Below, in pieces: positions 10,310-64,000 of a stretch of DNA of 64,000 nt. Location: assembly GCA_022844165.1 (NCBI GenBank), contig JALHMH010000007.1, forward strand, positions 64,001 through 128,000. The letters are read 5' to 3'. Both the position numbers and the translations under genes were made by a program. Origin of the DNA: Lysobacterales bacterium (GTDB lineage Bacteria > Pseudomonadota > Gammaproteobacteria > Xanthomonadales > SZUA-5). Within the stretch, counting starts at the first letter, position 1. Each line of letters begins with the position of its first letter. Below the pieces are notes generated by a model. That model worked only from the letters and a program-made list of their open reading frames with translations. It was not told the DNA's origin and searched no databases.

Positions 10310-12628
10310 CTACAGTCCGAATCTCGGTCGCATCTGTGACTGCACCGCAGGGCGCCTCAAGCTGGCCAGCAAACGCGACCTCAGGAATGCCGCGTCGTCG
10401 ATCGCGGGGGGCGAATAGCGTTTAGCGAATTCGTCAGCCGTGAGTGCGGGACTCTTCAGGTGGCCCTGGAACAATCGGCATCCTCGCGCTCTAAAGAAGC
10501 GCAACTGCGCCTCGCTTTCGACGCCTTCTGCAAGTACAGTGAGATTCAATTGTTGGCCCAAAGCGACGATCGCGCCGGCAATGATGTCGCCGCCCTTGGT
10601 ATCGCCGACATCGGCGACAAAACAGCGATCGATCTTGATCGTATCTACGGGCAGACGGCGCAGATACGCCAGCGAGCTGTAGCCGGTGCCGAAGTCGTCG
10701 ATCGCGATTCTGATTCCAAGCAGGCGCAGCGCCGACAAGGTTCGTTCGATGTCCCGCCCATGTTCCATCAGCAGACTTTCTGTCAGCTCAAGTTCCAGGG
10801 CTGCCGGGTCTAGTCCGGACTCTGCCAATATGCGCATCAGCCGTGATTGGAACTCGGGATTCAGCAACTGGCGCGCCGAGAGATTGACACTCAGGCGCAG
10901 CGCCTCGTGCCCGGTCTGGCGCCAGCGTTGCACTTGCCGGCACGCCGACTCCAACACGCGATCGCCGAGGCGGCCAATCAGTCCGCCGTCCTCCGCCGCA
11001 GCGATGAACTCTCCGGGCATGACCAATCGGCCGTCGGCCATACGCCAGCGGACCAACGCCTCTACGCCCGTGAGGCGTTCGTCTTCGCAATCAAAGATCG
11101 GTTGATAGTGAACAACGAATTCGTCCGCCAACAGCGCGCGTCGCAATTGGGCATCCAGGGTCAGTTTCCGCTGCGCACTGGCCACCAGTTCAGGCGTGTA
11201 GAACTGGTGTTCGTTGCCGCCGGTCGACTTGGCGCGGTACAACGCTGCATCCGCGCCGCGCAGCAGCTGCATGCTCGAAGCGCCGTCGTCTGGAAACACG
11301 GAAAAGCCGATGCTGGCTTCCACGAATGCCACCTGCCCATCGGCGAAACACACTGGCTCGCGCAGTGCTTCCAGGAGTCGCTCCGCGAGCAGCGAAGCGC
11401 CCTTCGCGTCTGCGGCCGACCGCGCGATGATCATGAACTCATCGCATCCAGTTCTTGCGATGAAATCCTCGCCACTCAATATCGAACGCAGGCGCCCGGC
11501 CACGCTGCGCAGCAAAAAGTCGCCGTAGTCGTACCCGAGCCCATCGTTGACAATGCGGAAACGATCGATATCCAGCAGCCCGACAAAGAAGCGTCCGCCC
11601 CCCGGGGATTGCGCACTCTCGTCGATCATGCGCTGGGCCGCGACGCGATTCGGCAGCCCGGTCAAAGCATCGATCTCGGCCACATGATTTGACACCTGCT
11701 GACGCGTCTCCGCTGCGTCCAGCGCGTTCCGCAGCTGCGTTTCGCTATGGAGATCCGCCGCATCGCGCTCGATGGCTGCCCCCAACGCGGCAGCGATGAT
11801 TCGCATGCTGGCTTCATTTGCGGCAGCCCACATCCGCGAATGCCCGTCGTCAATGCCGAGAAATCCGAAGAGTCCCGCGCGGCAGCGAATCGGGACCACC
11901 ATCAACGAGCCGATACCAAGCGCCTTCAACGCATTGCGTTCGATCGGCGGAAAGTCATTCAACGTGCCACGTATGCACTGGTCCTTTTGCAGCACGCGAA
12001 TCCAGCGGGCTTGCGCGGCACTGATCGGCATCCTGACGCCATCGCGCAGCGCCGACAACCCATTCTTCTGCCAGATCGAGTGCCGGATACTGTAGTTGCC
12101 GGGGTCGGTGCCCTCGAATTCGAACAGAAATGCCCGTTGTGCCTGGAAGCACTCACCGACACGCCTCAAGAGTTGCGCGATTCTGGCTTTGAGCGGGCCG
12201 TTCCCCAGCAGCAGCGGCGCCGACTGCGCCGCCAGGCTTAAGCCGGCATCGACCGATTTGCGATCGCTGATGTCGAACAGCACACAATGGAAAGCCTCAG
12301 CGTCGCCATCACTGCCGCGTTCGACCCAGGAGCGGTCCTCGACCCAACGCCATCGATGACCGCAACGAATCCGATACTCCATGTGCCAGCGCTCGGGATC
12401 CGCCGGCAGCGCGAGAATGTCGCTTTCGATCCGCGCCAGATCTTCCGGATGCATCAGCTCGGCAAAACAGGCGCCTCGCTGGAGCGCCTGCGCGTCGATG
12501 CCCCAATCGATGGCATTGGCGGACACTTCCTCAATCGGCCAGCCCGGTGCATTGCGCCAGCGAATCGCAATGGCGCCGGTGTCGGTGATGGCATTGGCAA
12601 GGAGGATTTTTTCGACGTTGGCGATCAT
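10310..12628 (-). CDS. PAS-GAF-GGDEF-EAL c-di-GMP signalling protein
   Basis: PAS (HPED...WRWVEDR), GAF, DALTGLPNR, variant GCDEF motif, EALVRW, DDFGTGYSSL, AEGVE. Confidence 0.92.
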   Translation of the reverse strand: MIANVEKILLANAITDTGAIAIRWRNAPGWPIEEVSANAIDWGIDAQALQRGACFAELMHPEDLARIESDILALPADPERWHMEYRIRCGHRWRWVEDRSWVERGSDGDAEAFHCVLFDISDRKSVDAGLSLAAQSAPLLLGNGPLKARIAQLLRRVGECFQAQRAFLFEFEGTDPGNYSIRHSIWQKNGLSALRDGVRMPISAAQARWIRVLQKDQCIRGTLNDFPPIERNALKALGIGSLMVVPIRCRAGLFGFLGIDDGHSRMWAAANEASMRIIAAALGAAIERDAADLHSETQLRNALDAAETRQQVSNHVAEIDALTGLPNRVAAQRMIDESAQSPGGGRFFVGLLDIDRFRIVNDGLGYDYGDFLLRSVAGRLRSILSGEDFIARTGCDEFMIIARSAADAKGASLLAERLLEALREPVCFADGQVAFVEASIGFSVFPDDGASSMQLLRGADAALYRAKSTGGNEHQFYTPELVASAQRKLTLDAQLRRALLADEFVVHYQPIFDCEDERLTGVEALVRWRMADGRLVMPGEFIAAAEDGGLIGRLGDRVLESACRQVQRWRQTGHEALRLSVNLSARQLLNPEFQSRLMRILAESGLDPAALELELTESLLMEHGRDIERTLSALRLLGIRIAIDDFGTGYSSLAYLRRLPVDTIKIDRCFVADVGDTKGGDIIAGAIVALGQQLNLTVLAEGVESEAQLRFFRARGCRLFQGHLKSPALTADEFAKRYSPPAIDDAAFLRSRLLASLRRPAVQSQMRPRFGL

Positions 12629-26910: not shown

Positions 26911-26984
26911 TGGGGGATCGTTCAACGGTAGGACAACGGACTCTGACTCCGTTTATCTAGGTTCGAATCCTAGTCCCCCAGCCA
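26911..26984 (+). tRNA. tRNA-Gln (anticodon CTG)
   Basis: Cloverleaf: acceptor TGGGGGA/TCCCCCA, D arm GTTC/GGAC, anticodon arm ACGGA-CTCTGAC-TCCGT, T arm CTAGG-TTCGAAT-CCTAG, encoded CCA. Confidence 0.97.
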
Positions 26985-27613: not shown

Positions 27614-30600
27614 TCAGGGTTCCGTTCGTCGCCGCGGATCCAGGCCCTCTGCATCGATCACGCGATTCTCGCGAAGCAGGTCGTAGATCAGATCGGTGAG
27701 TGCGGCCATGGCCTGTCTATCGGATTTGAGCATTAGTGTCGCCAGCTTTTGGTGTGATGTCAGCGCGCGCACCACGCCCTGTTGCACGGCGCCGGGCAGG
27801 TTGCCCCTGAGCGCCTGGTCTCGTGAGTTGTTCTCCACTTGAGCGACCACCACATCGTTCTCCTTGGCGATCGCCGCGATGTGGTTGACGAACATCGCCT
27901 GATCTCGTAACGGCGTAGCCTCTCCGAATAGCCGGTTAAGGCGGTTGATGATCTCCATCAGGTAGTCAGGCTGGTCATCCCGTACCTCGCCCCCTGGGCC
28001 GATTGGCTTCAATTTGGGTGGCTCAGTGCCGGACTTCTTGGCCGGTTCAGTCGACTTGATCTCGAAGCCCGTCAGTAAAATTCCATCCAGGTCGACATTG
28101 TCCGGCGTCACGCCCCTCAGCCGCTTGGTCAATAGGCGCGCGAAGGCAGTGAAGTTCTCCAGCTCCGGGTCACCAAAGTCGATAATCTGCGCAATGTACG
28201 CGTAACTTCGGCAGAAGCGCCCCAATCCGCTCTTGAACCCAAGCAGCGCGCTCAGCTGTTCGCTGTAAGCCTTACGTTGATGATCGGCCGACTTGGACGC
28301 CGCTTCATCCCCGCGCTGGCGGGCAGCCTCGTAGCTCGCCTCCCATTCGGCAACGGTGTCTGACAAAGCCTTGACCCGCTCGTTGAACTGGCGCGTGGTC
28401 CGCTCGGTCGCCGCGTACAGCGCCTTGTGCCGTGCATCTTCCTTCTTGGTCACGTCGCCGACGGTCTGAAAGCGCGCCTGCTTGAACCGTTCCAGATCCA
28501 CTGACGCATAAAGGTCGTGCGCGTCAAGTTGTTCCTTGATCTGGTAGACCACGTTCGGATCCTGCACATCCTCGATTGCGGCACCGTCATCGTATTTCGC
28601 GAACGCGCGGCGAACGCTGACCGGATCGTTGATGAAGTCCACTACGAAGGTGTCGTCTTTGCCCGGCGCCGTGCGGTTCAGGCGCGACAGGGTCTGCACA
28701 ATCTCGACGTCGTTGGCGATCTTTTTGTCCAGGTACATGGCGACCAGCTTGGGCTGATCGAAGCCGGTCTGAAACTTGTCGGCGACCAGCATCACCCGGT
28801 ACTCCGGTCGCTCGAAGGTGGCCGCCAGGTCATGACTGTCGGCACCCGGATTCATGCTGGCCTCGGTGAACTCTGCCTTGTCGTCAACCACGAAGGTGTC
28901 GCCAGCGATGCGCTGATCGGCGGCGTGCGTGATCTGCTTGCCGGTCAGCTTGCCGGAAAAGGCCACCAGTGAGCGGATGCCGGCGTATTGCGGATGGCGC
29001 TCGATGTAGCGATCGAAACCGATCTTGTAGCGCACCGCGGCCGCGCGTGAACTGGTTATCACCATCGCCTTGGCCTTGCCGTCCAGGCGATTGCTGACGT
29101 TGCGGCTGAAGTGCTCGATGATGAATTGCACCTTCTGGGTGACATTGGTCGGGTGCAAGCTCATCCACTGCGCCAGCGCCCGCTTGGCTTGTCGTCCGCT
29201 GACGCGCTTGGCGTCCTCGACCTGCTTCGCCAGATTGAAAGCCGTCTGGTACGGCGTGTAGCCGCGCAGCACGTCCAGGATGAAACCCTCATCGATCGCC
29301 TGCCGCATCGGGTACTTGTGGAAAGCAACCGGTGGGTGTTCCTTGCTGCGTTTGTGGCCGTCCACAGGGCGCCCGAACAGCATGTACGTCGAGTGCTTGG
29401 GCGTCGCGGTGAAGGCAAAGTGGCTTAGATTCTTCGGTCGTAGTCGCGATTGCTGCAGCTTTTCCAGCAGTTCCTCGATGGTCAGTCCGGCGATTCCCCC
29501 TTCGCCGCCCAACGCCAGCGCGGCTTGCAGCTTGGTGGCGCTGGTGCCCGTCTGCGAAGCATGCGCTTCGTCGATGATCACCGCGAAATTGCGGTTCTTC
29601 AGGCCGTGCTCGGTGACGATGGCCTCCATCGCATACGGGAAGGTCTGGATGGTGACCACGATGATCGGCGTGCCCGCCAGCAAAGCCTCAGCCAGTTGCT
29701 TGCTCTTGGATTGAGAGGACTTCTGGCGGTCAATCGCCGCGATCACGCCGAAGCGGTGGTCGATCTGTTTGACTGCGTCCTGCAACTGGCCGTCGAGTAC
29801 CGTGCGGTCGGTCACGATGACTACGCTGTTAAAGATGGCCTCGCCATCGTCGCGGCGCAGCTTGATCAGATCGTGCGCAGTCCAGGCGATGGTGCTGGTC
29901 TTGCCGGAGCCGGCGCTGTGTTCGCACAGGTACTGCATGCCGGGGCCGTTGGCCTTGGCATCGGCTACCATCGCGTTCACGGCCGACCATTGGTGGAATC
30001 GCGGGAAGATCAGCGTCTCGCGACGGGACCAGTTGCCTTTCAGGTCCACCACGTCCTTCTTCTCGGTGTAGACAAAGCTGTGAAAGATGCGCAGCCAGGC
30101 GTCGCGCTGGCAGATGTCTTCCCAGAAGTAGGCCACCGGGTACTCGCCATCCTCGCGCGGCGGATTGCCGGCCCGACCCTTGTGGCCACGGTTGAAGGGT
30201 AGGAACAAGGTGTTGTCGCCATCCAGCTTGGTGGTCATCCGGATATCGGAGTCCGACATCGCAAAGTGGACACGGCGCCGCGCTTGAAGGTCAGCAGGGG
30301 CTCGCGCCGACGCGTCTTGGCATCGACTGGCAGTCGGTCGGACTTATACTGGGCCATCGCCGCATCGGCGGACCGTGTGAAATCGGTCTTGAGCTCGACC
30401 GTGGCCACCGGAATGCCGTTGATGAAAAACACCAGGTCGATGGCCAGCGTGCGCGACGGGTGGTACTGCAATTGCGGCACCACGCGCAGCCGGTTCGCCG
30501 CGTAGCTCTCTTTGACCTTGGCGTTGCGCTGGTCTTCGGGCACAGCCTCAGACATCTCGATATGTCCGCAACCCGCCAGCGAGAATCCGCGCCGCAGCAG

Positions 30601-30864
30601 GTGGATGGTGCCGTCCTTGTCCAGTGCCTGTGCCAGTCGCTCCAGCAGCGTCTCGCGCGCAAGCGCCGGGTCGCCATGGTTCGCCTTCAGCAGGCGCTGC
30701 CAGCGCTCCTTCTGACTGTCCTGCAGCCAGCCCAGCACATCCTCGGGGTAAAGCGCGCGCTCGGTGTCGTAGTCCTGCGTGGTACCCACCAGCCAGCCCT
30801 GATCGCGCAGGCGCGCCAGCACATAGGCTTCGAAGTGCCTTTCCCGGTGATCTCGGTCATTCAT
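27614..30864 (-). pseudogene. hsdR: Type I restriction endonuclease subunit R, split by a 1-nt frameshift near 30271 (ORFs 30235..30864 and 27614..30259)
   Basis: N part has DLVFFINGIPVATVELK; C part has HSAGSGKT, DEAH, FTATPK, KFQTGFDQP, QTLSRLNR; adding one G gives KRGAVVHFAMSDSDI. Confidence 0.88.
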
Positions 30865-30998
30865 TGGGGTGCCTCGTTGGACCTGTCATCTGCGTGACGC
30901 GCCACAAAGAATCGCTCATACCACTCGCCAAGGCGCTTACCGGCCTGGCGGATCAATCCCGCGAGTGCGGCGTCGTCTACGGCGCAGAAGGTGTTCAC
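30861..30998 (-). CDS. 45-aa mini-ORF coupled to both neighbours, probable gene remnant
   Basis: GTG overlaps the GIY-YIG stop (GTGA) and its TGA overlaps the hsdR ATG (ATGA): MNTFCAVDDAALAGLIRQAGKRLGEWYERFFVARHADDRSNEAPQ. Confidence 0.55.
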   Translation of the reverse strand: MNTFCAVDDAALAGLIRQAGKRLGEWYERFFVARHADDRSNEAPQ

Positions 30999-31903
30999 AA
31001 TGCGTCTCCCGCTGCCTTCGCGAGTTGGTCAGCTTCCCAGTCCTTGTAGGTCTTCGGGGAATTCTTCAGTCGCCAGTCCAACGTCCCGTTGGCCGGGCGA
31101 CCCTTCACCGCTGCGGCGGCTGCGCTCGGGCTCTTGAATGCATAGTTGGTGGTGAACACGCAGTGCGTCGTTCGTGGTTCCAGAACTCCCATGCGGAGCA
31201 GTTCGGCATGCGGTTTGGCGTAAGCGTGGTCAGCAGGCCCGGTCCACGCAAGGCGCGCTTGCGAGCCGGCCTGCACGATGAACTCGCCACCCTCAAGAAT
31301 GGCCGCAGCGGCGATTCCGTACTTGCGATCGCTCAGCTCGAACTCGGGACTGCCGCTGGCCGCCGACACGTGAAGTGCTGGCGTGTTGGGTCGCTTGTTG
31401 CTGATGAAGAGATCAATCCGAAGCGCAGGAAGCACCATCAGCACGTTTTCGAGAAAGGCCTCCATGTTGGCCTGCGCAGCTTCGCTTAAGCCAGGGCGCG
31501 CAGGCGTGTTGCCGTTCTCCAGCGGCACGCGCCCCACGGCGCGCGCCTCCTCGACCAGACGTGCTTCCAGGTAGCGCACATGCGCCTTGTTGAGGACGTT
31601 CGCGGCCGAAGTGACCAGTACCGCGGCAGTCCACCAGTCCTTCTGCCCGTCGTGGTTGCGCATGCGGGCACTGATGTCCTCGGCCTCGCCGATGTAGGCG
31701 AGAGGAAGACCGTCGCGCTCACCGATCAGCAGATAGACGCCGGTGTAGCGCGCCTCCTTCCGAGCCAGCGCGTCGCTGATCTGCGTGCGCGGCACCATGA
31801 GCAGGTGACCGGTCCAATTGAAGACCTCGGCGGTCAGCATGCCATCCGGGCGACCGTCGATGAAATACAGCTCCAGCGAGCGACCTTTGGTCTGATGGCT
31901 CAT
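30995..31903 (-). CDS. GIY-YIG nuclease family protein with C-terminal DUF4357/RAMA-like domain
   Basis: GVYLLIG...AYIGEAE, LNKAHVRYLE, C-terminal FKSPSAAAAAVKGRPANGTLDW. Confidence 0.85.
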   Translation of the reverse strand: MSHQTKGRSLELYFIDGRPDGMLTAEVFNWTGHLLMVPRTQISDALARKEARYTGVYLLIGERDGLPLAYIGEAEDISARMRNHDGQKDWWTAAVLVTSAANVLNKAHVRYLEARLVEEARAVGRVPLENGNTPARPGLSEAAQANMEAFLENVLMVLPALRIDLFISNKRPNTPALHVSAASGSPEFELSDRKYGIAAAAILEGGEFIVQAGSQARLAWTGPADHAYAKPHAELLRMGVLEPRTTHCVFTTNYAFKSPSAAAAAVKGRPANGTLDWRLKNSPKTYKDWEADQLAKAAGDAL

Positions 31904-33139
31904 GCGACCTCCCGCAGATCGATCTGGCCGGTGACGGCGGCGGTGATCAGGGCGGAGCGGCGTTCTGACCGCAGTATTAGGCTGCGCTCGGTGGCCGCCA
32001 TGATTGCGTCGAATCGCTTCGTGCTCAGTGCAATGTGCTCAAGTATTTGGCGCTGCTCGGCAAGCGGCGGCAGGCACAGCCGGAGATCGCGGAATTCGTC
32101 CCAGTAGAGGCGCATGCGGAAGTCCGCGATTCCGCGCGAATGGCGTCGCATCTCCTCGATGGCCATGGGCGTCCGCAGCAGGTGCTCGATGTAGGCAGTT
32201 TCAACAGGCACCATCGGAGAGGCGACGACGTAGGCAGGACTGACGAGTCCGTGGACAGATACGGCGCCGACCGCGCCCTGCCAGGCGAGCATCATGTTGT
32301 ACGCGATGTCGCCGGGCTCGACGCGCTTGTACTTGGTGCGGTCCTCGCTAAGCCAGACGCGCCTATCACGGTCATCCTGATCCATTTCCTCATCGCTGAT
32401 GCCGTCGTGGATCGAGATTGACAGCACTGGCAAGGAGGCATCGCCGGTACGAATCGCTTCCCGATAGACATGGGCGACGCGCCTGACTTCCCAATGTTTG
32501 GGGATTGACTCTATCCAGTTGACGCCGGAGTCCTTCATCGACGCATCCGCATCGAGACCCTTGGTGACCGCGTGCGTGATCAGCGCCTGGCGCTTTTCCT
32601 TCAGCAGTTCGATGAAGCGTGCCTTTTTGGCGATCAGCGCGTCGATACGGGCGGTCTCGCGGTCAAGAGCGCCGGCAATCTCGCGTTGCTCCACTCGGGA
32701 CGGTGCCGCTATCGGATTCGATGCCAAGGCCTCCTGCGTCATGGATGGGAGCGCAGTGTTGGTTGAGTAGAGACCGAACGGGATGGCTGACGCCGAATAA
32801 AACAGGAAGCGCGCATCGGCATTGGCGTTGATCTGCGTGTAGAACATTGTGTCCACAGTCCAAAATCGGCCGTTGACGTACACAGGTCGGTCAATGGTGC
32901 CCTTCCGACCCAGCAGAACCGATTCGCCTTCGAATAGGTAGCTGTCGGCACGGGCGAACTCGCCACCGGAGCCGAACACCGGATACTCACCCTCTGGGTT
33001 CTCAACCAGTTTGTGATCGCGGCCATTGCAGATCGTGGCCAGGCGCTTCATGGCACATACAGCCCAATGGCGAGGGACGACGCCGAGCCACTCAACCCCG
33101 GATTCTTTGTGCGCCGGGATACTGTTTGTAGCGACTCAT
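31900..33139 (-). pseudogene. hsdS: Type I R-M specificity subunit S with a 1-nt insertion near 33116-33118; downstream ORF 31900..33051 is intact
   Basis: Two TRDs with conserved repeats (PSRVEQREI..LKEKRQALITHAVTKG; PPLAEQ..RSALITAAVTG). Removing one base gives [25 protein letters not shown], matching the internal repeat MKDSGVNWIESIPKHW. Confidence 0.88.
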
Positions 33140-34056
33140 GCGCCAGCCCCTGAGTTTGCGGGGTCGGCCCACAACGGAGGCGCCTTCCAATTCGTCGGGA
33201 AGCCCATTGCTGCGGTGTCGACTTCATACCCATCGATCAACGCGATCAACCGCTGCCGCCAACGGTGCGCAGGTGCGATCACGTCCATCAGGTACAACAA
33301 CATCAGCAGCGTGTTGTAGAGCTTGTGCGAGTCCGGCACAAACTGCCCACGGAGCACCGCGGGTTTGCTGCGAGGCGCCTGCGGTCGCACAGTGAAATCG
33401 CGATTCCAGAAGCGCGCGTGGTGGGCGCAGGTGTTACGCACCACGGTCAGATGGTGCAGCCAGGACTGCAGGACCGCCTCGTCCACGCCGTAGGGTGCAG
33501 CGATGCGGCGGCGCGTCGGCATCGGCTGCAGATTGCTGTACCAGTGCGACAACAATCCCAGTGACATCACCTCACAGACGGCCCAGACCGGCGGCAACGG
33601 CTCCTGGTAGGTATCGCGCAAATGGCGAATGAAGGTCTCGTCGGACCGCGTCACTTCGTCCGTCAGCTGCGCCAGTTGGCGCTGATGCCAGTCGTCCCGA
33701 TAAGCGATGCTGCGGTCCAGATGCGCGTGACTGCCATGGCAATGCGCCAACTGGTAGGCCCACTGTGTACGCACCGACACTTCGATGCGTTCGATGGCAT
33801 CCATCACCAGAAGACGCAGTTCGCGATCGAAGATGTAGAGATTCAGCACATCCTCAAAGCGCGTGCCCGGTTTGAAGGTGTGCGTGGCGTGATCCGCCTC
33901 GAAGGGCAGCCAGTAGGCGCAGAGCCGGTAGTAATTCAGGTGCCGGAGGTAGAACTCGGCTTGCGCGGGATCGGCGATCAGCATGCCGCGGCTCTGCAGC
34001 AGGGCGACCTGCGCGGTCAGCGTGAGCGCTGGCTTGGTGAAGGGCAGCTTGCTCAT
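33136..34056 (-). CDS. Abi family protein (Abi_2, AbiD/AbiF-like HEPN RNase)
   Basis: [32 protein letters not shown]...[23 protein letters not shown] RxxxxH motif RNTCAHH, MGFP..W. Confidence 0.9.
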
Positions 34057-34098
34057 GGGCGTTGCCCACGGCCGCCAGGGCGCGCGAATGCGGACCCC

Positions 34099-34162
34099 AG
34101 AAAAGAGAAACCCGCCGGTTTGAGGGTGCCCTTGCGGGTAGAGCCTTGGCGGGTATTGTTGC
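34099..34162 (-). ncRNA. Structured leader or antitoxin RNA candidate upstream of the Abi gene (abiF-motif-like)
   Basis: Minus-strand stem ACCCGCC/GGCGGGT enclosing CCC-GCAA-GGG, followed by UUUCUCUUUU; directly downstream of a promoter. Confidence 0.6.
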
Positions 34163-34167
34163 CCGCA

Positions 34168-34196
34168 AGTCTAGCCGGGACTGCCTGGACCGACAA
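34168..34196 (-). promoter_or_regulatory. Internal sigma70 promoter for the Abi leader
   Basis: TTGTCG-N17-TAGACT on the minus strand. Confidence 0.65.
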
Positions 34197-34237
34197 GCCG
34201 CCGGCGCGCGCTGATGCGTTGCCCATGCGGCCACGGT

Positions 34238-36256
34238 TCATTGGGTCACCTCGCCCAACAGCGCCGCGATCTCGGCTTCCACGGCCTTGAGTTCGGCATC
34301 GATCTCCGCCAGCGGACGCGGCGGCTGGTATTTGTAGAAGTAGCGGTTGAAATTGATTTCAAAGCCCACACGGCCAGGCTCGCCATCCTTGTCGTCGCAA
34401 AAGCTCGCATCGATCCAGGCATCGGGCACGTGCGGCAGCACCTCGCGCGCCAGATAGTCCTGCGGCAGCTCGCCGAGCGGCACGTTCTCGTAGTCGGTCA
34501 GTTCTGGATCGGCCATCACCGTGCCGTCGGCCGCACGGACCACCTCTCCCGCCGGATCGCGCACGCCCAGCGCGTTGATCAGTGCCTTGACGAAGGACTT
34601 GCCGACCTTGCCGATGATCGGGTTGCGCTCGGCCGTCAGCGCGGCAAAGGCTGCCGCCCACTCGAAGGCGCGGATACAGTCGTGATGCGCAGTCAGCGCC
34701 GCTTCCCACGCCGCGCGCTGCTCGTCGGTCAGCGCTAACCAGGCCTTTTCCTCACGCAGTTTCGCCAGCGTTGCGTCACTGACCTGCAGGGTCATGCGCA
34801 GAGGCCGCAGGACCTTGATGCGGCGATAACCGAAGCGGCGGTAGTCGAGCATCCGGCTGAGTTCGTGGTCACCGCCCTCGGCGTAGATGCCAGCAATTTG
34901 AGTGATCTGGTCCTCGCTGACACGCCGCCGCTTGTTGCCCTCATTGCGCATCGGGGACCAAAGGCTGGTGGCGTTGATCAGCTGTACGTGGTTCCGCCGG
35001 TTGCCGGGCTTCTTGTTGGACAAAATCCACAAATAGGTGCCGATACCGGTGCGGAAGAAGATCTCGGTGGGCAGCGCGATGATGGCGTCGACCAGATCCT
35101 GCTCCAGCAGCCACCGGCGGATCTCGGATTCGCCGGAACCGGCGCCACCGTTGAACAGCGGCGAGCCCGACAGCACGATCGCCGCGCGACCACCTCCCTT
35201 CTCGCGTCGTTCCAGCTTGCTGGCCAGGTGCAGCAGGAACAGCATCGAGCCATCGTTAATACGCGGCAGACCGGGGCCGAAGCGGCCGTAATAGCCCTTC
35301 TCTCGATGCTCCTTGTTGACGGCCGCCGCGTCCTTTTCCCATTTCTTGCCGAAGGGCGGATTGGACAGGCAGTAGTGAAAGCGCTCGCCGGCGAACTGAT
35401 CATTGGACAGCGTGCTGCCGAGCTTGATGTTCCGGGACAGGTCGCGACCAGGGTCCGTCGGCAGCTGGCGCAGCAACATGCCGGTCAGGCACACCGCGTG
35501 CGTTTCCGGTTCCAGCTCCTGCCCGTACGGCACCAGAACGGGCGGCACACGCGTGCGATTGCCATAGTTGGCGACATGGTCCATCGCATCGGACAGAAAC
35601 CCTCCGGTGCCGCAGGTGGGGTCGTACAGCGTGCGGATCAGACCGGGGTTGGCCTCGAACAGCGCATCGTCCGGGTCCAGCAGCAGCGTGGTTGCCAGAT
35701 GCACCACGTCGCGTGGCGTCATGAAGTCCTCTGCCCCTTCGTTGACCTCGGCGCCAAAGCGTCGGATCAGGTGTTCGTACAAATTGCTCATCACCCGGTC
35801 AGGCACGACGTCGGGGTGCAGATCGATGCCGGCGAAGTTGCGGCAGATCCGGAACAGCACGTTCGCCTTGTCCAGGCGCACCAGCGTGTTTTCGATGTCG
35901 AACTGCTCGAAGATCACTCGCGCGTTGTCCGAAAACTGCACGATGTAGTCCTGCAGGTTCTGCCGCGTCTTGCCGTCACCCAGCGTGTCCAGCGTGTACT
36001 GCGAGACGTTGTAGAAGGGATAGCGCGTGATCTGGCGCAGGATCAGGTCAAGGTCGATGCCGCTGTCCTTGTACTGCGCGGTCGCTTCCCGAACCGCATC
36101 CCGCGTAGGCTCCAGCACGCATTCCAGGCGACGCAGCAGGGTGAACGGCAAGATGATCTTGCCAAAGTCCGTGTGCTTGAAATCGCCCCACAGGTCCTCG
36201 GCGTTCTTCCAGATGAAGTCCGCCAAGGACGCGCCAGTTCCGCCCGCTTGTGCCAT
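34238..36256 (-). CDS. hsdM: Type I R-M N6-adenine methyltransferase subunit M
   Basis: FIWKNAEDLWG, FMTPRDVV, motif I DPTCGTGGFL, motif IV NPPF, GFEINFNRYFY. Confidence 0.95.
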   Translation of the reverse strand: MAQAGGTGASLADFIWKNAEDLWGDFKHTDFGKIILPFTLLRRLECVLEPTRDAVREATAQYKDSGIDLDLILRQITRYPFYNVSQYTLDTLGDGKTRQNLQDYIVQFSDNARVIFEQFDIENTLVRLDKANVLFRICRNFAGIDLHPDVVPDRVMSNLYEHLIRRFGAEVNEGAEDFMTPRDVVHLATTLLLDPDDALFEANPGLIRTLYDPTCGTGGFLSDAMDHVANYGNRTRVPPVLVPYGQELEPETHAVCLTGMLLRQLPTDPGRDLSRNIKLGSTLSNDQFAGERFHYCLSNPPFGKKWEKDAAAVNKEHREKGYYGRFGPGLPRINDGSMLFLLHLASKLERREKGGGRAAIVLSGSPLFNGGAGSGESEIRRWLLEQDLVDAIIALPTEIFFRTGIGTYLWILSNKKPGNRRNHVQLINATSLWSPMRNEGNKRRRVSEDQITQIAGIYAEGGDHELSRMLDYRRFGYRRIKVLRPLRMTLQVSDATLAKLREEKAWLALTDEQRAAWEAALTAHHDCIRAFEWAAAFAALTAERNPIIGKVGKSFVKALINALGVRDPAGEVVRAADGTVMADPELTDYENVPLGELPQDYLAREVLPHVPDAWIDASFCDDKDGEPGRVGFEINFNRYFYKYQPPRPLAEIDAELKAVEAEIAALLGEVTQ

Positions 36257-36513
36257 TCCATGCCCCTGCATCGATCGCATAGGGTGAGCCTAACAGCAGA
36301 ATACTTTGAAGGCTGGCCTGGATATGGTCGCCGAGCGCGCAAACGAAGGCCGCGGGCCGTGGACCGGCGCTCACACGCCAATAGGCGAGACGACCGGCGG
36401 CTGCGCTGCCGGGCCGGAAATGCGCGAAGCGCGCGGGGTTGTGGCAAGTACGCTGCAGAGCGAAGCCAACTATGCTAGGGCGGTCTGAGGCGAAGCTTCG
36501 CTAGAGATCGGTC

Positions 36514-47281: not shown

Positions 47282-48328
47282 TTAGGACTTTTGCCTGCCC
47301 GATTCCGTACGCCACAAGGAAAACAGTACGCCACCGACCAGGAGCGAAACTGTGACCGTCAAACTGATCACTGCTGGCACCTTGCCACCGAGCAGAAAGT
47401 GACCAACAAAGATCTTGGCGCCGATGAAGATCAGGATGATCGCCAGCGCATACTTCAAATAATGGAATCGATGCACCATCGCCGACAACGTGAAATACAG
47501 CGTGCGCAAACCGAGAATCGCAAAAATATTGGATGTGTAGACGATGAACGGATCCGAGGTGATGGCAAAAATAGCCGGCACCGAGTCGATCGCAAATACG
47601 AGATCAGCGATCTCGACCAGCACCAGACACAAGAATAACGGCGTTGCGAACAAAACGAGCTGACCGGTGCCTTTGCGGTCGGGAAGGCGCACGAAGAATC
47701 GCTCGCCATGGAGTTGATCGGTGACCCTCAAATGGGTGCGCATGAACCGCAGGAGCTTATTGTTGGCGATGTCAGGTGCTTCATCGCCCATGCGTAACAT
47801 CTTGACGCCGGTATAAATCAAGATCACGGCAAAGAAGTACATGATCCAGGAGAATTTCAACACCAGCGCAGCGCCAATGCCGATCATCAACGCGCGCAAT
47901 ACAATGACGCCGAGGATGCCCCAGAACAACACTCGGTGCTGATAGATGCGCGGTACGGCGAAGTACGACAGGATCATCGAAATGATGAACACGTTGTCCA
48001 TCGCCAAAGCCATTTCAAGCAGGAAACCGGTGAGATAGAGCTGCACTGCGCCCATCGCTCGCGCCTCTGGCGTCGCCGCTTTGGCAAGTTGCTCGTCCAT
48101 CAAACCCGCGGAATCTTGCTGCAAGTAAATGAAGTACACGGCCACGGCCCACCCGAGGCCCAGGCTCAAATACATCGCGGACATCCACAGGCTTTCGCGA
48201 GTGCCGATTTCGTGCGCCTCGCGGTGTAAAACACCCAGATCGAAAACCAGAATCGCCAAAACCACAGCGACAAAGGTCAGCCAGAGCCACAATGGCATTC
48301 CGAGCCAGATCGCTGTCAACCACTCCAT
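47282..48328 (-). CDS. TerC/Alx family membrane protein
   Basis: DLG, LEMALAMDNVF, QHRVLFWGILG, DLVFAIDSVPAIFAIT, YTSNIFAILGLR; start MEWLTAIW. Confidence 0.92.
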   Translation of the reverse strand: MEWLTAIWLGMPLWLWLTFVAVVLAILVFDLGVLHREAHEIGTRESLWMSAMYLSLGLGWAVAVYFIYLQQDSAGLMDEQLAKAATPEARAMGAVQLYLTGFLLEMALAMDNVFIISMILSYFAVPRIYQHRVLFWGILGVIVLRALMIGIGAALVLKFSWIMYFFAVILIYTGVKMLRMGDEAPDIANNKLLRFMRTHLRVTDQLHGERFFVRLPDRKGTGQLVLFATPLFLCLVLVEIADLVFAIDSVPAIFAITSDPFIVYTSNIFAILGLRTLYFTLSAMVHRFHYLKYALAIILIFIGAKIFVGHFLLGGKVPAVISLTVTVSLLVGGVLFSLWRTESGRQKS

Positions 48329-48398
48329 ACGAAGAATCCCTAGCGCAATGTTCCGATCAGCCAGGGCATCGATATCGCCAGCACGTGGCCACTGCGCC

Positions 48399-48465
48399 GC
48401 CCCTCCTGCTATCGACTCCGACATCGCAACGTGTTGCACGTTGCCAGAGGGGCCCGCAGTCGATC
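48399..48465 (-). ncRNA. Candidate pseudoknotted cis-regulatory RNA in the TerC leader
   Basis: P1 AUCGACU/AGUCGAU, P2 GCAACGUG-CAA-CACGUUGC, pseudoknot GCCCCUCUG/CAGGAGGGGC; extended -10 TGcCATAAT immediately upstream (48472-48480). Confidence 0.55.
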
Positions 48466-60115: not shown

Positions 60116-62323
60116 CTATGGCATCGTTAACGCCTGCATGCAATTGCGTGTATTGGCCGGCTCGTAGGGCGGCAACACCGGATAAAAGCGAATGCGCTGG
60201 CAGCCATCGCCGGTGTCGAACGGTAACCAGCGCACGGCACTCGAGAATTCCAGGCGCAGATCGCTGCTCGGCAGCTTCTGGAACAGCGCGTTCCACACCC
60301 GAAGCGCGCCGGTCGCGCCGGAGAGTCTGGTCGGTTCGTTGTCGTCGCGGCCAAGCCAGACGATGCCAAGGTGCTCGCCGGTATAACCGGCATACCAGCT
60401 GTCGCGCAGACCATCACTGGTGCCGGTTTTCCCCGCCGAATCGATGCGCATGCCGGGTCCCTGGCTCAAGCTGCGCGCGGTACCCGAGAGTGTGGTTTCG
60501 TTGAGCGCCACCGTCACCAGCTTGACAACATCTTCGCCGCTCGCTTCGCCGCTGGGCCGCGGCACGCGGCTTAACACGCCACCACGTTCGTCGAGGACCG
60601 AATGCACCGCCGACAGCGGCACCACATTGCCGCCACTGGCCAGACCCTGATAAAGCTGGGCAACTTCGTAGGGGCTCAAATCGATCGAACCTAGAATCAG
60701 CGAAGGCAGCGGCTGGGCCGGCGGCATCACGCCGAGCGTGCCGATCAGCTGCGCCAACTGCACCACGCCAACGTCCAGCCCGACACGCGCGGTCGCGAGG
60801 TTGTAACTCTTGGCCAACGCGTCGACCAACGGCACCGTGCCATGACTAGTGCGATCGAAATTTTGCGGCTGCCAGGTCTTGCCGGTGGGCAGGCGCAGAC
60901 TCAACGGTTCATCGGACACCAGACTCGCGAGGCTGTAACGCCGCGGTTGTGAAAGGGCTAACAGATAGACAAAGGGCTTGAGCAACGAACCCACCGGCCG
61001 TTTTGCGTCCAGTGCCCGGTTGAACCCTGCGCTGCGTGCGTCGCGCCCCCCGACCAACGCCAGCACTTCGCCCGTGTGAGCATGCGTCAGCACCACAGCA
61101 GCCTCGGTTTTACCCTCGGCATCGACCGTCTTCAGCGTTGTGGCGATGGCTTGCTCGGCAAGGCGCTGCGCACCGGGATCGAGCGTTGTCAAAATTGTCA
61201 GGCCCTGACTCTGCAGCGCGCTCTGATCATATTCTGCGGCCAGCTGCGCGCGAACCAATTGCATGAACGCCGGATAGCGCACACGCGACGGCGGCCTCGG
61301 CACCACGGCAAGCGGCGCTTTCAACGCCGCCGCATGTTCGTCAGCATCAATGAGCCCGGTTTCCAGGAACTGGCCCAGCACGATTCTGCGCCGCGCGATG
61401 GCGCGCTCAGGGTTGCGCCGCGGATCGTAGAACGAAGGCCCCTTGACGAGACCGGCGAGCAACGCGATCTCGGGGGCGTCGAGCGCGTCCAACGACCGTC
61501 CAAAATAGAATTCAGCGCCGGCGCCGAACCCGTGCACCGCCAACGCACCGTTCTGGCCGATATAGGCGCGATTCAAATACGCCTCGAGGATGGTCTGCTT
61601 GTCGAATCGTGCATCGATCACCACCGCAAGGCCCATCTCCATCAGCTTGCGGCGCAACGAGCGATCGTTGCTGAGCAGCGTATTTTTCACCAGCTGTTGA
61701 GTGATCGTGGATCCGCCTTGCACGAGTTTGCGTGCGCGGATGTTTGCCCACATCGCGCGGGCGATGCCCCAGGGATCGATGCCCTCGTGATCCTTGAAGT
61801 TGCGATCTTCGACAGCCTGGATACCGGCAACGAGCAGCGCTGGCATCGCCGCGATCGGCAATGGCAAACGCTCGGTGTCGTCAGTCGGCAAGATGGTTGC
61901 GATTCGCGCCGGATCCACCCGGACTTGCTTCAGATCGCCTCCCCCTATGCGCTTGAGCGTTGCGATGCGGCCGCTCTGCAAGCTCAACCGAAACCGCTCC
62001 GGGGCAGCGCGACCGTCGCCAAAATCGAACCCGCGTGTGTGAATGTCGAAACTCGCACCGTCGCGGCGGAAACTTCCTGGCGTAGCCCCGGTCGGATCGG
62101 CCCGATAGCGCGCTTCCGACAGCTCGACTTCCAGTTGTTCGGCACTGAGGCGTTTGCCGACGCTGAGCAGCATCGGACGGGCGTATACCTTGGAGGCGAC
62201 GGGCTGCGCGCCCAGATCGAAACGTGCATCGATCACACGATTGAAGTAAACGATCGCCGGCAAGAGCACGCCCAACGCCGCGCCAAGGCCAAACCAACTG
62301 CAATTCTTCAGGATGCGCCACAT
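60116..62323 (-). CDS. mrcB: Penicillin-binding protein 1B
   Basis: UB2H region, EDRNF, QGGSTITQQLVKN, transpeptidase SLLK / SYN / KTG motifs. Confidence 0.95.
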   Translation of the reverse strand: MWRILKNCSWFGLGAALGVLLPAIVYFNRVIDARFDLGAQPVASKVYARPMLLSVGKRLSAEQLEVELSEARYRADPTGATPGSFRRDGASFDIHTRGFDFGDGRAAPERFRLSLQSGRIATLKRIGGGDLKQVRVDPARIATILPTDDTERLPLPIAAMPALLVAGIQAVEDRNFKDHEGIDPWGIARAMWANIRARKLVQGGSTITQQLVKNTLLSNDRSLRRKLMEMGLAVVIDARFDKQTILEAYLNRAYIGQNGALAVHGFGAGAEFYFGRSLDALDAPEIALLAGLVKGPSFYDPRRNPERAIARRRIVLGQFLETGLIDADEHAAALKAPLAVVPRPPSRVRYPAFMQLVRAQLAAEYDQSALQSQGLTILTTLDPGAQRLAEQAIATTLKTVDAEGKTEAAVVLTHAHTGEVLALVGGRDARSAGFNRALDAKRPVGSLLKPFVYLLALSQPRRYSLASLVSDEPLSLRLPTGKTWQPQNFDRTSHGTVPLVDALAKSYNLATARVGLDVGVVQLAQLIGTLGVMPPAQPLPSLILGSIDLSPYEVAQLYQGLASGGNVVPLSAVHSVLDERGGVLSRVPRPSGEASGEDVVKLVTVALNETTLSGTARSLSQGPGMRIDSAGKTGTSDGLRDSWYAGYTGEHLGIVWLGRDDNEPTRLSGATGALRVWNALFQKLPSSDLRLEFSSAVRWLPFDTGDGCQRIRFYPVLPPYEPANTRNCMQALTMP

Positions 62324-62414
62324 GGGTGGCGAGCATATCCGCTAGCGTTGGCAGACGCGAAAGAACAAACTCGGGCGGATTGGGGCAAGTGCGAAGTGGT
62401 TCATAGTCCTTGAA

Positions 62415-62612
62415 AGCGGTTGCCCGGCCGGCTGTTGAGAAGCCGCCTGCTGGTGAGAACCAGGGATGGTCCGCTCATGGACCGAGCACGCAAGTGCTTG
62501 ATCCACGTAGAGCGAGTGCGCGCCTGCGCCGGACTCGCGACATCGAGAAAGTGCAGGAAAGCACTTTCTCAGTGTCGTGATAGTGTGGTGCGCACTCGTG
62601 GAACAATCCGCA
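62415..62612 (+). ncRNA. Candidate ~200-nt highly structured RNA
   Basis: Four short hairpins (two with GNRA loops), a three-way junction, an 86-nt long hairpin with G-U pairs valid only on the + strand, and a closing stem; -10-like CATAGT at 62402-62407. Confidence 0.7.
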
Positions 62613-62655
62613 AAACCCTATTAATCCAAGAATCACCCGGCGCCACCCAACTGTG

Positions 62656-64000
62656 ATGATCATCATCGACACACCCACCGTCAGCGACTGGCGCGCCGAA
62701 TATCGAGCGTTACGTGCAGCCCATCCCGGCGCCACACTGGTGCGCTACCGGCACGCGCCGCATTGGCTCGCAGACGATGCGATCGCACGCCTCGCCAAGG
62801 CCAGCGCCGCCGCCGGCGGATTGGCGATGCCGATTCCGGCTGGGTGGCTCGGCGTCGATGCGTCGGCATTGGACGATGCAGCCTTCGCGCGGTGTGCGCC
62901 AACGTCCATCCCCATCGACTGCGATCCGCCGCTATGGGTCGCTGTGCCGGTCGCAAGCGATGCCCTGTACCTGTGCGATCACGTCGTCGCCGATGTGGCA
63001 GCCGACCCGTGCCCGCCCGAGATCGGTGCATGGCTGGCAAGAATTGGCGCAACACCGCAACCGACAGTGCAAGCGGCGCGCACGCAACAACCGGTGGTAT
63101 TGCATTTGCTTCACGGCTGGGGCGGCGGCGCTGCGCGCTTCGTGCGCGATCTGGCAGGCGCCGACGCCAGCAACGCACATCTGTTGTTGCAAGCCGTCAG
63201 TTGCGAAGGGGTTCACGGCGTCGCTCTGCGTTTGATCGATGCGGCAAACGGCGCGATGTTGCGCGAATGGCCGCTGCTACCGCAAATCCGCAATATCGAG
63301 ATCGCCCACGCCGGTTACCGTGCGGTGATCGAAGACTTGGTCGCCACACACGTCATCGAGCAAGTCTGGGTTTCCTCGCTGGTTGGGCATTCTTTGGATG
63401 CGCTGGACGTGGCGCTGCCGATCCGTTGGATGGTGCACGACGCTCTGCCTTTTTGGCCGAAGCTCGATCTTGATTTTCACGATCCAGCGCTGCACTTCGA
63501 CCACACGGCGCTGGCCGAAGCGCTCGCCGGGCCGGGCCTGTTTCGAGGCATCGGCGCAGCCGACTGGATGCGTTTGCAAGAGGCCGCCACCGAGCAGTTG
63601 CTGCGCCGCCAAGCGACCATTGTCGCGCCTTCCGCGTCGGCTCGCCGCCAGTTACTGCGTGTTGCACCAACGCTGGCGCCATTGCCAGCAGCCGTGATCG
63701 CGCACGGCACCGCACCGCTGCCGCGCGTGCACTTTGCAGCGCCGACCCGCGGCAAACTCAGGTTGGTGGTCATCGGCCGACTACAAGGTGGCAAAGGCGG
63801 CGAGTTCCTGCGATCGCTATTGCCGCAGATTCTGATTCACGCCGACCTCTATCTGCTCGGCGCCGGCAAAGCGGCGCACGATTTGTTCGGCCAGCGGGGT
63901 GTGCACATCGTTCTTGACTACGAGCGCGAGCACTTGCCGCGATTGTTGGCCAGCATCGCGCCGCATGCGGCGTTGTTTCCAGGCACGGTCTCGGAGACCT
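62656..64000 (+). CDS. Glycosyltransferase, GT4-like region (runs off the right edge; not in the ORF track)
   Basis: Manual translation MIIIDTPTVSDW...VLHLLHGWGGGAARFVRDL...VHDALPFWP...VAPS..IAHG...VIGRLQGGKG...PGTVSET, open to the end of the window. Confidence 0.85.
   Translation, partial: MIIIDTPTVSDWRAEYRALRAAHPGATLVRYRHAPHWLADDAIARLAKASAAAGGLAMPIPAGWLGVDASALDDAAFARCAPTSIPIDCDPPLWVAVPVASDALYLCDHVVADVAADPCPPEIGAWLARIGATPQPTVQAARTQQPVVLHLLHGWGGGAARFVRDLAGADASNAHLLLQAVSCEGVHGVALRLIDAANGAMLREWPLLPQIRNIEIAHAGYRAVIEDLVATHVIEQVWVSSLVGHSLDALDVALPIRWMVHDALPFWPKLDLDFHDPALHFDHTALAEALAGPGLFRGIGAADWMRLQEAATEQLLRRQATIVAPSASARRQLLRVAPTLAPLPAAVIAHGTAPLPRVHFAAPTRGKLRLVVIGRLQGGKGGEFLRSLLPQILIHADLYLLGAGKAAHDLFGQRGVHIVLDYEREHLPRLLASIAPHAALFPGTVSET

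Follow-up and report, generated by a model that had tools for sequence, protein, structure and literature searches.

A multi-hairpin element of about 200 nt that folds far beyond chance lies between mrcB, the gene for penicillin-binding protein 1B (PBP1b), and a divergently oriented gene for a large glycosyltransferase in a Lysobacterales bacterium. The stretch analysed, called the window throughout, is the 64,000-nt segment of contig JALHMH010000007.1 that runs from position 64,001 to position 128,000; coordinates are counted from its first letter, except where they follow the name of another locus. We tentatively favour the view that the element is a young, lineage-specific insertion of some 200-225 bp of palindromic DNA, of the kind represented by REPINs, clusters of repetitive extragenic palindromes (REPs) or miniature transposable elements with inverted repeats (MITEs), and that it is not a conserved RNA gene. 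If this is correct, the event would be an ordinary one, in which palindromic DNA landed in the promoter region of a single lineage. The case also carries a caution: a very strong fold (z-score about -7, GNRA loops and a bias in the direction of G-U pairs) does not in itself count as evidence for a conserved RNA gene.

Orthologous spacers of six syntenic relatives lack the element

Loci encoding relatives of the window PBP1b were collected with 10 kb on each side. In total, 88 loci were confirmed and 80 were kept (1.48 Mb); the window's own genome is not among these 80. The nearest relative found, L001, is a metagenome-assembled genome of the Lysobacterales whose PBP1b is 91% identical to that of the window. 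Five further loci, L002 to L005 and L035, encode PBP1b proteins with 69-73% identity. The divergent order of mrcB and the glycosyltransferase gene is kept in all six relatives.

None of the six orthologous spacers between the two genes holds the element. The first-pass annotation had proposed an undescribed non-coding RNA or a large cis-regulatory leader and had named conservation in orthologous regions as a test of this proposal, which fails on that point. Because the element is missing from all six syntenic relatives, covariation is not measurable.

The comparison with L001 is the most direct one. The L001 spacer, 107 nt long, aligns to window positions 62324-62417 and then continues with 14 nt to the same ATGATC... 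start of the glycosyltransferase gene. The site is therefore an insertion polymorphism, with the element present in the window and absent at the same position in L001. The limits of the indel agree with those of the structured module within 2 nt on the left and to about 40 nt on the right. In the five other relatives, the spacers are 164-259 nt long and show no similarity to the element in blastn or nhmmer searches. Spacer fold z-scores in the six relatives range from -1.8 to +1.0 on either strand, as compared to -6.3 for the window spacer. Parsimony would have the element gained in the window lineage, or else lost in L001, once the other five had split off.

Structure of the element

Helix coordinates were fixed by string search (Table 1). 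Every helix listed in the first-pass annotation was indeed found in the sequence. Taken as one structure, these helices comprise 63 pairs, 4 of them G-U and none mismatched or otherwise non-standard, with a free energy of -95.2 kcal/mol; the unconstrained minimum free energy (MFE) structure of 62412-62616 reaches -106.9 kcal/mol. The multi-domain fold drawn at first is largely retained in the MFE structure, since the closing helix, hairpins H1, H2 and H4 and the long rod all reappear there with pair probabilities of 0.8-1.0. The exception is the GGAT/ATCC junction with H3, which the MFE structure redraws. The pairs first proposed in this region have probabilities of 0.17-0.32 (junction 0.17, H3 0.3), and this part of the drawing is uncertain in the folding model.

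The fold energy was compared with that of 200 dinucleotide shuffles. On the + strand, 62405-62625 folds at -109.3 kcal/mol as compared to -76.1 +/- 4.8 kcal/mol for the shuffled sequences (z -6.92), and 0 of the 200 shuffles were as good. Across the 64-kb window, the module is the second most structured 200-nt tile for its G+C content; only the region at 26.85-27.55 kb, with tRNA-Gln and a tandem repeat, outranks it.

Table 1. Features of the element and of its surroundings in the window
Feature	Position	Strand	Remarks
Segment replaced by 14 nt (AATCGCTGCACCCG) in L001	62418..62655		238 nt here; net indel about 224 nt
Whole structured module	62416..62611	+	Closing helix, four short hairpins and 86-nt rod; 63 pairs, z -6.9
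Closing helix, 5' arm GCGGTTG	62416..62422	+	Pair probability 0.77-0.95; as DNA, the left inverted terminus
Closing helix, 3' arm CAATCCGC, one bulged T	62604..62611	+	As DNA, the right inverted terminus
Hairpin H1, CGGCT/AGCCG, loop GTTGAGA	62429..62445	+	Arms 62429-62433/62441-62445
Hairpin H2, CTGGT-GAGA-ACCAG, GNRA loop	62450..62463	+	Arms 62450-62454/62459-62463
Three-way junction GGAT/ATCC (62464-62467/62501-62504), as drawn in the first-pass annotation	62464..62504	+	Encloses H3 and H4
H3, GGTCC/GGACC	62468-62472/62479-62483	+	Inside the GGAT/ATCC junction
H4, GAGCAC-GCAA-GTGCTT, GNRA loop	62484-62489/62494-62499	+	Inside the junction; pair probability 0.96-1.0
86-nt rod, imperfect inverted repeat, three segments	62513..62598	+	12 + 9 + 10 pairs, 10/6-nt internal loop, AGGAAA apical loop
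GTAG tetranucleotide, 2 nt 5' of the rod	62507..62510	+	Tag of one REP superfamily; a single occurrence could be chance
mrcB (PBP1b)	60116..62323	-	Transgly, UB2H and Transpeptidase domains; divergent
Large multidomain glycosyltransferase gene, 5' part, runs off the window	62653..63999	+	Likely start ATG 62656
Block conserved with L001, GGGCGGATTGGGGCAAGTGCGAAGTGGTTCATAGT, just 5' of the module	62372..62407	+	Weak promoter-like pair TTGGGG-16 nt-CATAGT, 7/12 matches
TATTAAT, then CC	62619..62625	+	Alternative -10 for the glycosyltransferase gene; resembles the GATAATCC box of relatives

Several traits of the element are those of palindromic elements, namely terminal inverted 7-8-mers, an 18-nt duplication covering H1 and H2, and diverged inverted arms of the rod. 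H1 and H2 together form an 18-nt tandem direct repeat (62427-62441 against 62445-62459, 13 of 15 positions identical), whose stems, however, are set in registers that differ on the 5' side. In the core of the rod, a 6-nt spacer separates the arms of a 20-nt inverted repeat. The left arm of the rod has its own sub-palindrome (GCGAGTGCG at 62512-62520 and CGGACTCGC at 62530-62538), the counterpart of which has been lost from the right arm. It is because of the inverted termini, the tandem-duplicated hairpin, the decaying inverted doublet and the GTAG before the rod that we read the element as palindromic DNA.

On this reading, self-complementary DNA would have inserted into the divergent promoter region shared by mrcB and the glycosyltransferase gene. 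The element would be a low-copy or relic member of the bacterial intergenic palindromic elements (REP clusters, REPIN-like doublets, MITE-like foldbacks), probably selfish DNA derived from a mobile element, and would probably be a passive passenger in the glycosyltransferase mRNA, transcribed as its leader of about 240 nt. A stable 5' structure of this kind could at most alter mRNA stability. The start codon is left untouched, and a switch-like expression platform is lacking.

Searches for further copies

A number of results weigh against an insertion of palindromic DNA. Multi-copy occurrence is what defines palindromic families, yet no second copy was found. Within the 64-kb window, blastn-short gave chance-level 9-16-mers only. 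Searches of the 80 loci with blastn (word size 7) and nhmmer recovered the L001 flank only, with no copy beyond chance. Plasmid records gave no copy, and phage records gave two short matches only (E 0.07-0.8). Three open frames of the element were also translated and used as protein baits, in case copies elsewhere had been miscalled as genes; the 78-aa and 56-aa frames of the + strand had no relatives in a set of 5.8 billion proteins. In addition, no convincing target-site duplication was seen, and the sequence left after excision of the module is not that of L001. The 50 open reading frames (ORFs) of the window include none with a RAYT or other transposase domain. Unlike typical MITEs, the element does not form a simple foldback, and the polarity of the event, gain or loss, rests on parsimony with distant outgroups only. 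Finally, the GNRA loops, the direction of the G-U pairs and the greater stability of the + strand point to selection on a + strand RNA, or to RNA ancestry; these signals are weighed below.

A covariance model built from the single sequence (R1) and run with default filters on the window and the 80 loci (1.55 Mb) returned only the element itself and its own rod reversed, the latter being matched on the - strand with 32 bits. Palindromes tagged with GT[AG]G[AG]AG were present at 0-2 per locus in the window and the six relatives, and no abundant REP family was visible there. Overall, a very abundant repeat with one copy per 10-15 kb is unlikely, and membership in a low-copy family is possible.

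Other candidate relationships were rejected. The 86-aa frame of the - strand matched one protein of a representative set, a 3,420-aa tandem-repeat protein (P0008) with 27% identity over ten repeats, and this match was judged spurious. Local alignment gave no sign of an origin from the left flank, since 244 of 500 shuffles reached the same score. Matches noted by eye to L035:67-174 and to the L002 region after mrcB were at chance level in shuffling tests and were not used.

Comparison with palindromic elements and structured leaders

According to the portions of PMC3733652 and PMC3337134 that deal with them, REPINs are doublets of REPs that form hairpins and are mobilised by RAYT transposases. 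REP dimers, REP clusters and REP dimers set in other palindromes are covered in the same portion of PMC3733652, in which each REP unit carries a conserved tag, GTAG or CGTC, on one side, and REPs between convergent and co-directional genes are placed close to 3' ends, with no frequency given there for divergent spacers. The comparison extends to BIME-like mosaics. The element resembles these systems in being intergenic and devoid of coding capacity, and in having a long, imperfectly paired hairpin that consists of two inverted copies, with a sub-palindrome kept in one of them. It further shares with them a GTAG beside a palindrome, tandem small hairpins and presence or absence between close relatives, and the related loci L004 and L002 hold REPIN- or REP-like units beside the same gene. 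It differs from them in that no second copy is seen in the window or in the 80 loci and no RAYT in the window. The GTAG occurs on one side only, with none mirrored on the right, and one such tetranucleotide is expected per about 256 nt. The extra non-repeated hairpins, the closing helix and the position between divergent genes are further differences. REP families typically number tens to thousands of copies, and REPs favour the 3' ends of genes.

Bacterial MITEs, and ERIC and Correia elements as examples of long intergenic palindromes, are 100-250 bp long, with inverted termini and a stable predicted RNA or DNA structure. They are found inserted in promoters and leaders, are often co-transcribed with their neighbours and show insertion polymorphism between close relatives. 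The element shares with them its length, inverted termini, stable predicted fold, promoter or leader site and insertion polymorphism. In contrast to them, its termini measure only 7-8 bp (GCGGTTG/CAATCCGC, 7 pairs with one bulge), which is short for a terminal inverted repeat, there is no clear target-site duplication, and the structure is not a single foldback.

With structured 5' leaders and riboswitches that belong to cell-envelope genes, the element has in common a multi-helix fold and GNRA loops, and possibly also a location after the promoter and before the start of an envelope glycosyltransferase gene. It departs from them in being found with 0 of 6 orthologous genes, in having no expression platform and in having no Rfam match.

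Palindromic elements near mrcB in related genomes

Related genomes carry palindromic elements around the same gene. In L004, a hairpin-rich element (12177-12355, + strand, z -8.9) directly follows the mrcB stop codon. Its rod, 75 nt long and near-perfect, consists of two inverted copies of a palindromic unit (GTCCAGACNNGTCTGGAC twice), a REPIN-like build. In L002, several REP-like units of the form GCGGG..CCCGCTCCCA (also GCGGG..AAACCCGCTCCCA) lie after mrcB at about 12200-12620 on the + strand, some of them as inverted pairs.

With filters off, model R1 was run on the five closest loci (97 kb, L005 left out) and matched L004:12177-12355 end to end with 21.8 bits. The E-value is about 1e-4 in 97 kb, or about 1e-3 when scaled to all loci, and this was the sole R1 match outside the window. 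One may then ask whether the two elements are members of a modular family in which short ends are conserved and a long hairpin varies freely. Such a family could be a mobile element that lands beside a GCGGTTG-like sequence, or a host palindrome invaded by REPIN-type doublets; REP dimers inside other conserved palindromes are indeed described in the part of PMC3733652 devoted to them. Besides the end-to-end match, the two share AGCGGTTG at the 5' end, an ACAATCC that follows the rod after 4-5 nt, and a GTTGAGA stretch. We read this stretch as lying in a hairpin loop in each, though the covariance-model alignment pairs the small hairpins differently. The bases of the rods (CGAGTGCG/CGCACTCG against CGAAAGCG/CGCTTTTG) differ by two compensatory pair differences. 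GCGGTTG and CAATCC occur 120-260 nt apart at 12 places, of which none but these two folds strongly (z -9.0 and -11.8). GCGGTTG followed after 10-40 nt by GTTGAGA is found in one of the 80 loci, which is L004.

Against this stands the composition of the score, about 14 of the 21.8 bits being earned by any long palindrome; the L004 rod on the wrong strand scores 14.3 bits. Outside the rods, the similarity does not exceed chance: the score of the 5' part was reached by 96 of 1000 shuffles and that of the 3' part by 232 of 1000. What would be the 5' "terminus" in L004 falls within the mrcB coding sequence and is for the most part inherited (L002 has GAGGCGTTGAC), and the MFE structure of the L004 element closes differently. 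No third member turned up in 1.55 Mb with a second model, R2, for which both elements were used. Moreover, the motifs were chosen after the match had been seen. A modular family with L004:12177-12355 as its second member is thus improbable to our eyes. We treat the L004 element as a lead, a putative homologue at most, and not as a relative.

A segment of L001 (1390-2060) contains an IS200/IS605-type Y1 transposase gene (150 aa; NF033573, 67.6 bits against a cut-off of 55). Arrays of three short hairpins with GAA or GCAA loops stand on either side of this gene as mirror images of each other. These hairpins are dissimilar to the element, and a kinship with them was rejected with similarity at chance level.

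Strand asymmetry and the possibility of an RNA function

The first-pass annotation had also taken the wobble pairs as a sign of selection on RNA. A strand bias is borne out by both the pairs and the loops: all four non-Watson-Crick pairs are G-U on the + strand, and the two 4-nt loops (GAGA and GCAA) are both GNRA, on the + strand only. Among comparable hairpins of the window, 12 of 230 (5%) have a GNRA loop, these two included. When read on the - strand, the helices first listed cost 7 kcal/mol more (-87.9 kcal/mol). In the unconstrained fold of 62405-62625, the + strand is more stable by 12.6 kcal/mol, the - strand reaching -96.7 kcal/mol (z -5.33, as compared to -6.9).

These signals are what would be expected of a functional, lineage-specific structured RNA of the + strand. 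Such an RNA might be a 5' leader tuning the stability or the translation of the glycosyltransferase mRNA, or a processed small RNA, and its youth or narrow distribution would explain why the available relatives do not show it. In line with this, the block conserved with L001, with its weak -35/-10 pair, ends 9 nt before the closing helix, and transcription across the element is likely, as this block is the only non-coding sequence 5' of the glycosyltransferase gene in L001. The same idea has to contend with the absence from all six syntenic relatives, by which neither conservation nor covariation can be demonstrated. A sigma-70 and terminator scan of 62200-62800 returned 0 promoter-like and 0 terminator-like sites, so that this region holds no consensus-grade promoter and no intrinsic terminator of the kind a stand-alone small RNA gene would have as its own. 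The start-codon region folds independently of the element and no pairing occurs between them, which leaves no recognisable expression platform. The common direction of the four G-U pairs has a chance probability of about 1 in 8 (two-sided). GNRA-type loops are not exclusive to RNA elements in this lineage either, because the DNA hairpins that flank the L001 IS200-type transposase gene bear GAA and GCAA loops; ends of single-strand-DNA transposons are thus marked by such loops too. A lineage-specific functional RNA is in our estimation possible, though doubtful.

A related proposal joins the RNA signals to the L004 match. The element would be a recently born or acquired structured RNA module which, with the L004 element, would represent an undescribed modular RNA or mobile family of uncultured Lysobacterales and would have been recruited as a 240-nt leader. 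It would then combine paired ends and two tetraloops of the GNRA type with a long rod of freely variable sequence, at the head of a gene for a 1,400-residue envelope glycosyltransferase. We regard this as unlikely. If the + strand RNA signals do reflect function, the element would be a rare and datable case of a mobile palindrome becoming a regulatory RNA within one genus, and the window genome and L001 would offer a natural comparison with and without it.

Flanking genes and transcription signals

The location of the element between mrcB and a glycosyltransferase gene was confirmed. The mrcB product is identified as PBP1b by its domains and by TIGR02071 (778 bits, cut-off 718). The downstream ORF starts at GTG 62653 or ATG 62656, 41-44 nt 3' of the element, and its first 449 residues have no Pfam family match. 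Its distant relatives carry glycosyltransferase names, and its L001 orthologue, a protein of 1432 aa with a GT4 + GT2 + GT4 arrangement, is 69% identical over 448 aa.

The -10-like hexamer pointed out in the first-pass annotation does exist, as CATAGT at 62402-62407, but the promoter that it would imply remained below threshold in the sigma-70 scan. The weak -35/-10 pair to which it belongs was recognised by eye. In L001, the conserved block that contains this pair sits about 35 nt 5' of the glycosyltransferase ATG and may act as the promoter. Because the only sequence conserved 5' of the glycosyltransferase gene in L001 lies left of the window insertion, the module is probably transcribed passively. 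We therefore lean towards placing it within a glycosyltransferase leader of about 240 nt rather than upstream of the promoter.

A conserved GATAAT(C/T)C box was observed 5' of whichever gene diverges from mrcB in L002, L003, L004, L006, L007, L011, L035 and L039. GATAAT occurs in 8 of the 10 loci of Lysobacterales type and in 12 of 34 when all loci examined are counted, and the box is probably the -10 element of the gene diverging from mrcB. L001 lacks it, and L005 (GATACT) and the window (TATTAATCC) have altered forms.

The alternative is that the promoter of the glycosyltransferase gene lies at TATTAAT (62619), in which case the module would be upstream of it and would not be transcribed with the gene. 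The element would then matter as DNA only, as an untranscribed spacer or a cruciform-forming inverted repeat between divergent promoters, and it could alter promoter spacing, supercoiling coupling or protein binding. The window sequence TATTAATCC at 62619-62627 does resemble the GATAATCC box found 5' of the divergent gene in relatives, and the spacing between this box and the mrcB-proximal conserved block varies freely among them. Folded as single-stranded DNA, the element has a z-score of -5.2, and the inverted repeat of the rod core with its short spacer is suited to this idea. On the other hand, TATTAAT matches the box at 6 of 8 positions, has no recognisable -35 and was not called as a promoter; L001 lacks the box yet keeps the gene; and a role as duplex DNA leaves the strand asymmetry of G-U pairs and GNRA loops unexplained. 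A DNA-level role alone is, on balance, very unlikely.

Upstream of mrcB, a TATGCT hexamer (window 62332-62337, - strand) is found 7-8 nt 5' of the ATG in all seven genomes (the window, L001 to L005 and L035), with no Shine-Dalgarno sequence between the two. This arrangement suggests, from sequence, that the mrcB mRNA may be leaderless or nearly so.

Known RNA families and the likeness to retrons

At gathering thresholds, the Rfam 15 matches in the whole window were limited to a tRNA (26911) and to a terC motif (48409), with none in the element. A permissive Rfam scan of 62250-62750 gave noise, the best match being the plant microRNA MIR535 with 20.5 bits against a threshold of 64 (E 0.15). ARAGORN detected no tRNA or tmRNA-like gene in 62200-62800. 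The view that the element belongs to no common described RNA family is in agreement with both Rfam scans. Reading of the sequence by eye, with no tool run, revealed no attC site, dif/Xer site, sigma-54 promoter, group II intron domain V or SRP-like features.

A likeness to a retron non-coding RNA (msr-msd) had been remarked upon at first. It holds for the layout: the 5' end of the element pairs with the 3' end, a single long hairpin comes after the short ones, and the length is about 200 nt, such that the 7-pair closing helix would correspond to a1/a2, the short hairpins to msr and the 86-nt rod to the msd stem-loop. The likeness is one of architecture only. There is no reverse transcriptase domain in the 50 window ORFs or in the 8 L001 ORFs on the glycosyltransferase side, and the L001 counterpart of the 4.3 kb beyond the window end is all glycosyltransferase. 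The four flanking proteins gave no PADLOC defence match, and the permissive scan, which used every family of the release, returned no retron family. The element has neither a reverse transcriptase nor an effector gene beside it and no conservation with such a gene; the gene downstream is a conserved housekeeping-type glycosyltransferase gene, present without the element in L001. Because no reverse transcriptase is nearby, the element is not taken as a retron, and this reading is essentially excluded.

Other features of the window

The most structured stretch of the window begins with tRNA-Gln(CTG) at 26911, after which four to five units, each about 161 nt long, stand in tandem up to 27551. 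Each unit repeats the 3' end of the tRNA and a GC-rich hairpin. Directly after these repeats, 27614-36280 (- strand) encodes a type I restriction-modification system with inserted Abi_2 and DUF4357 genes. Judging from its sequence, this region looks like an island integrated at the tRNA gene, with reiterated copies of the attachment site.

The terC RNA motif (RF03067; 48409-48465, - strand) scores 53 bits, the threshold being 39.9, and is located where a gene for a TerC-family membrane protein has its 5' end. The greedy ORF call for this gene, 47282-48439, overlaps the motif by about 30 nt, and because of this overlap the true start of TerC is probably further downstream.

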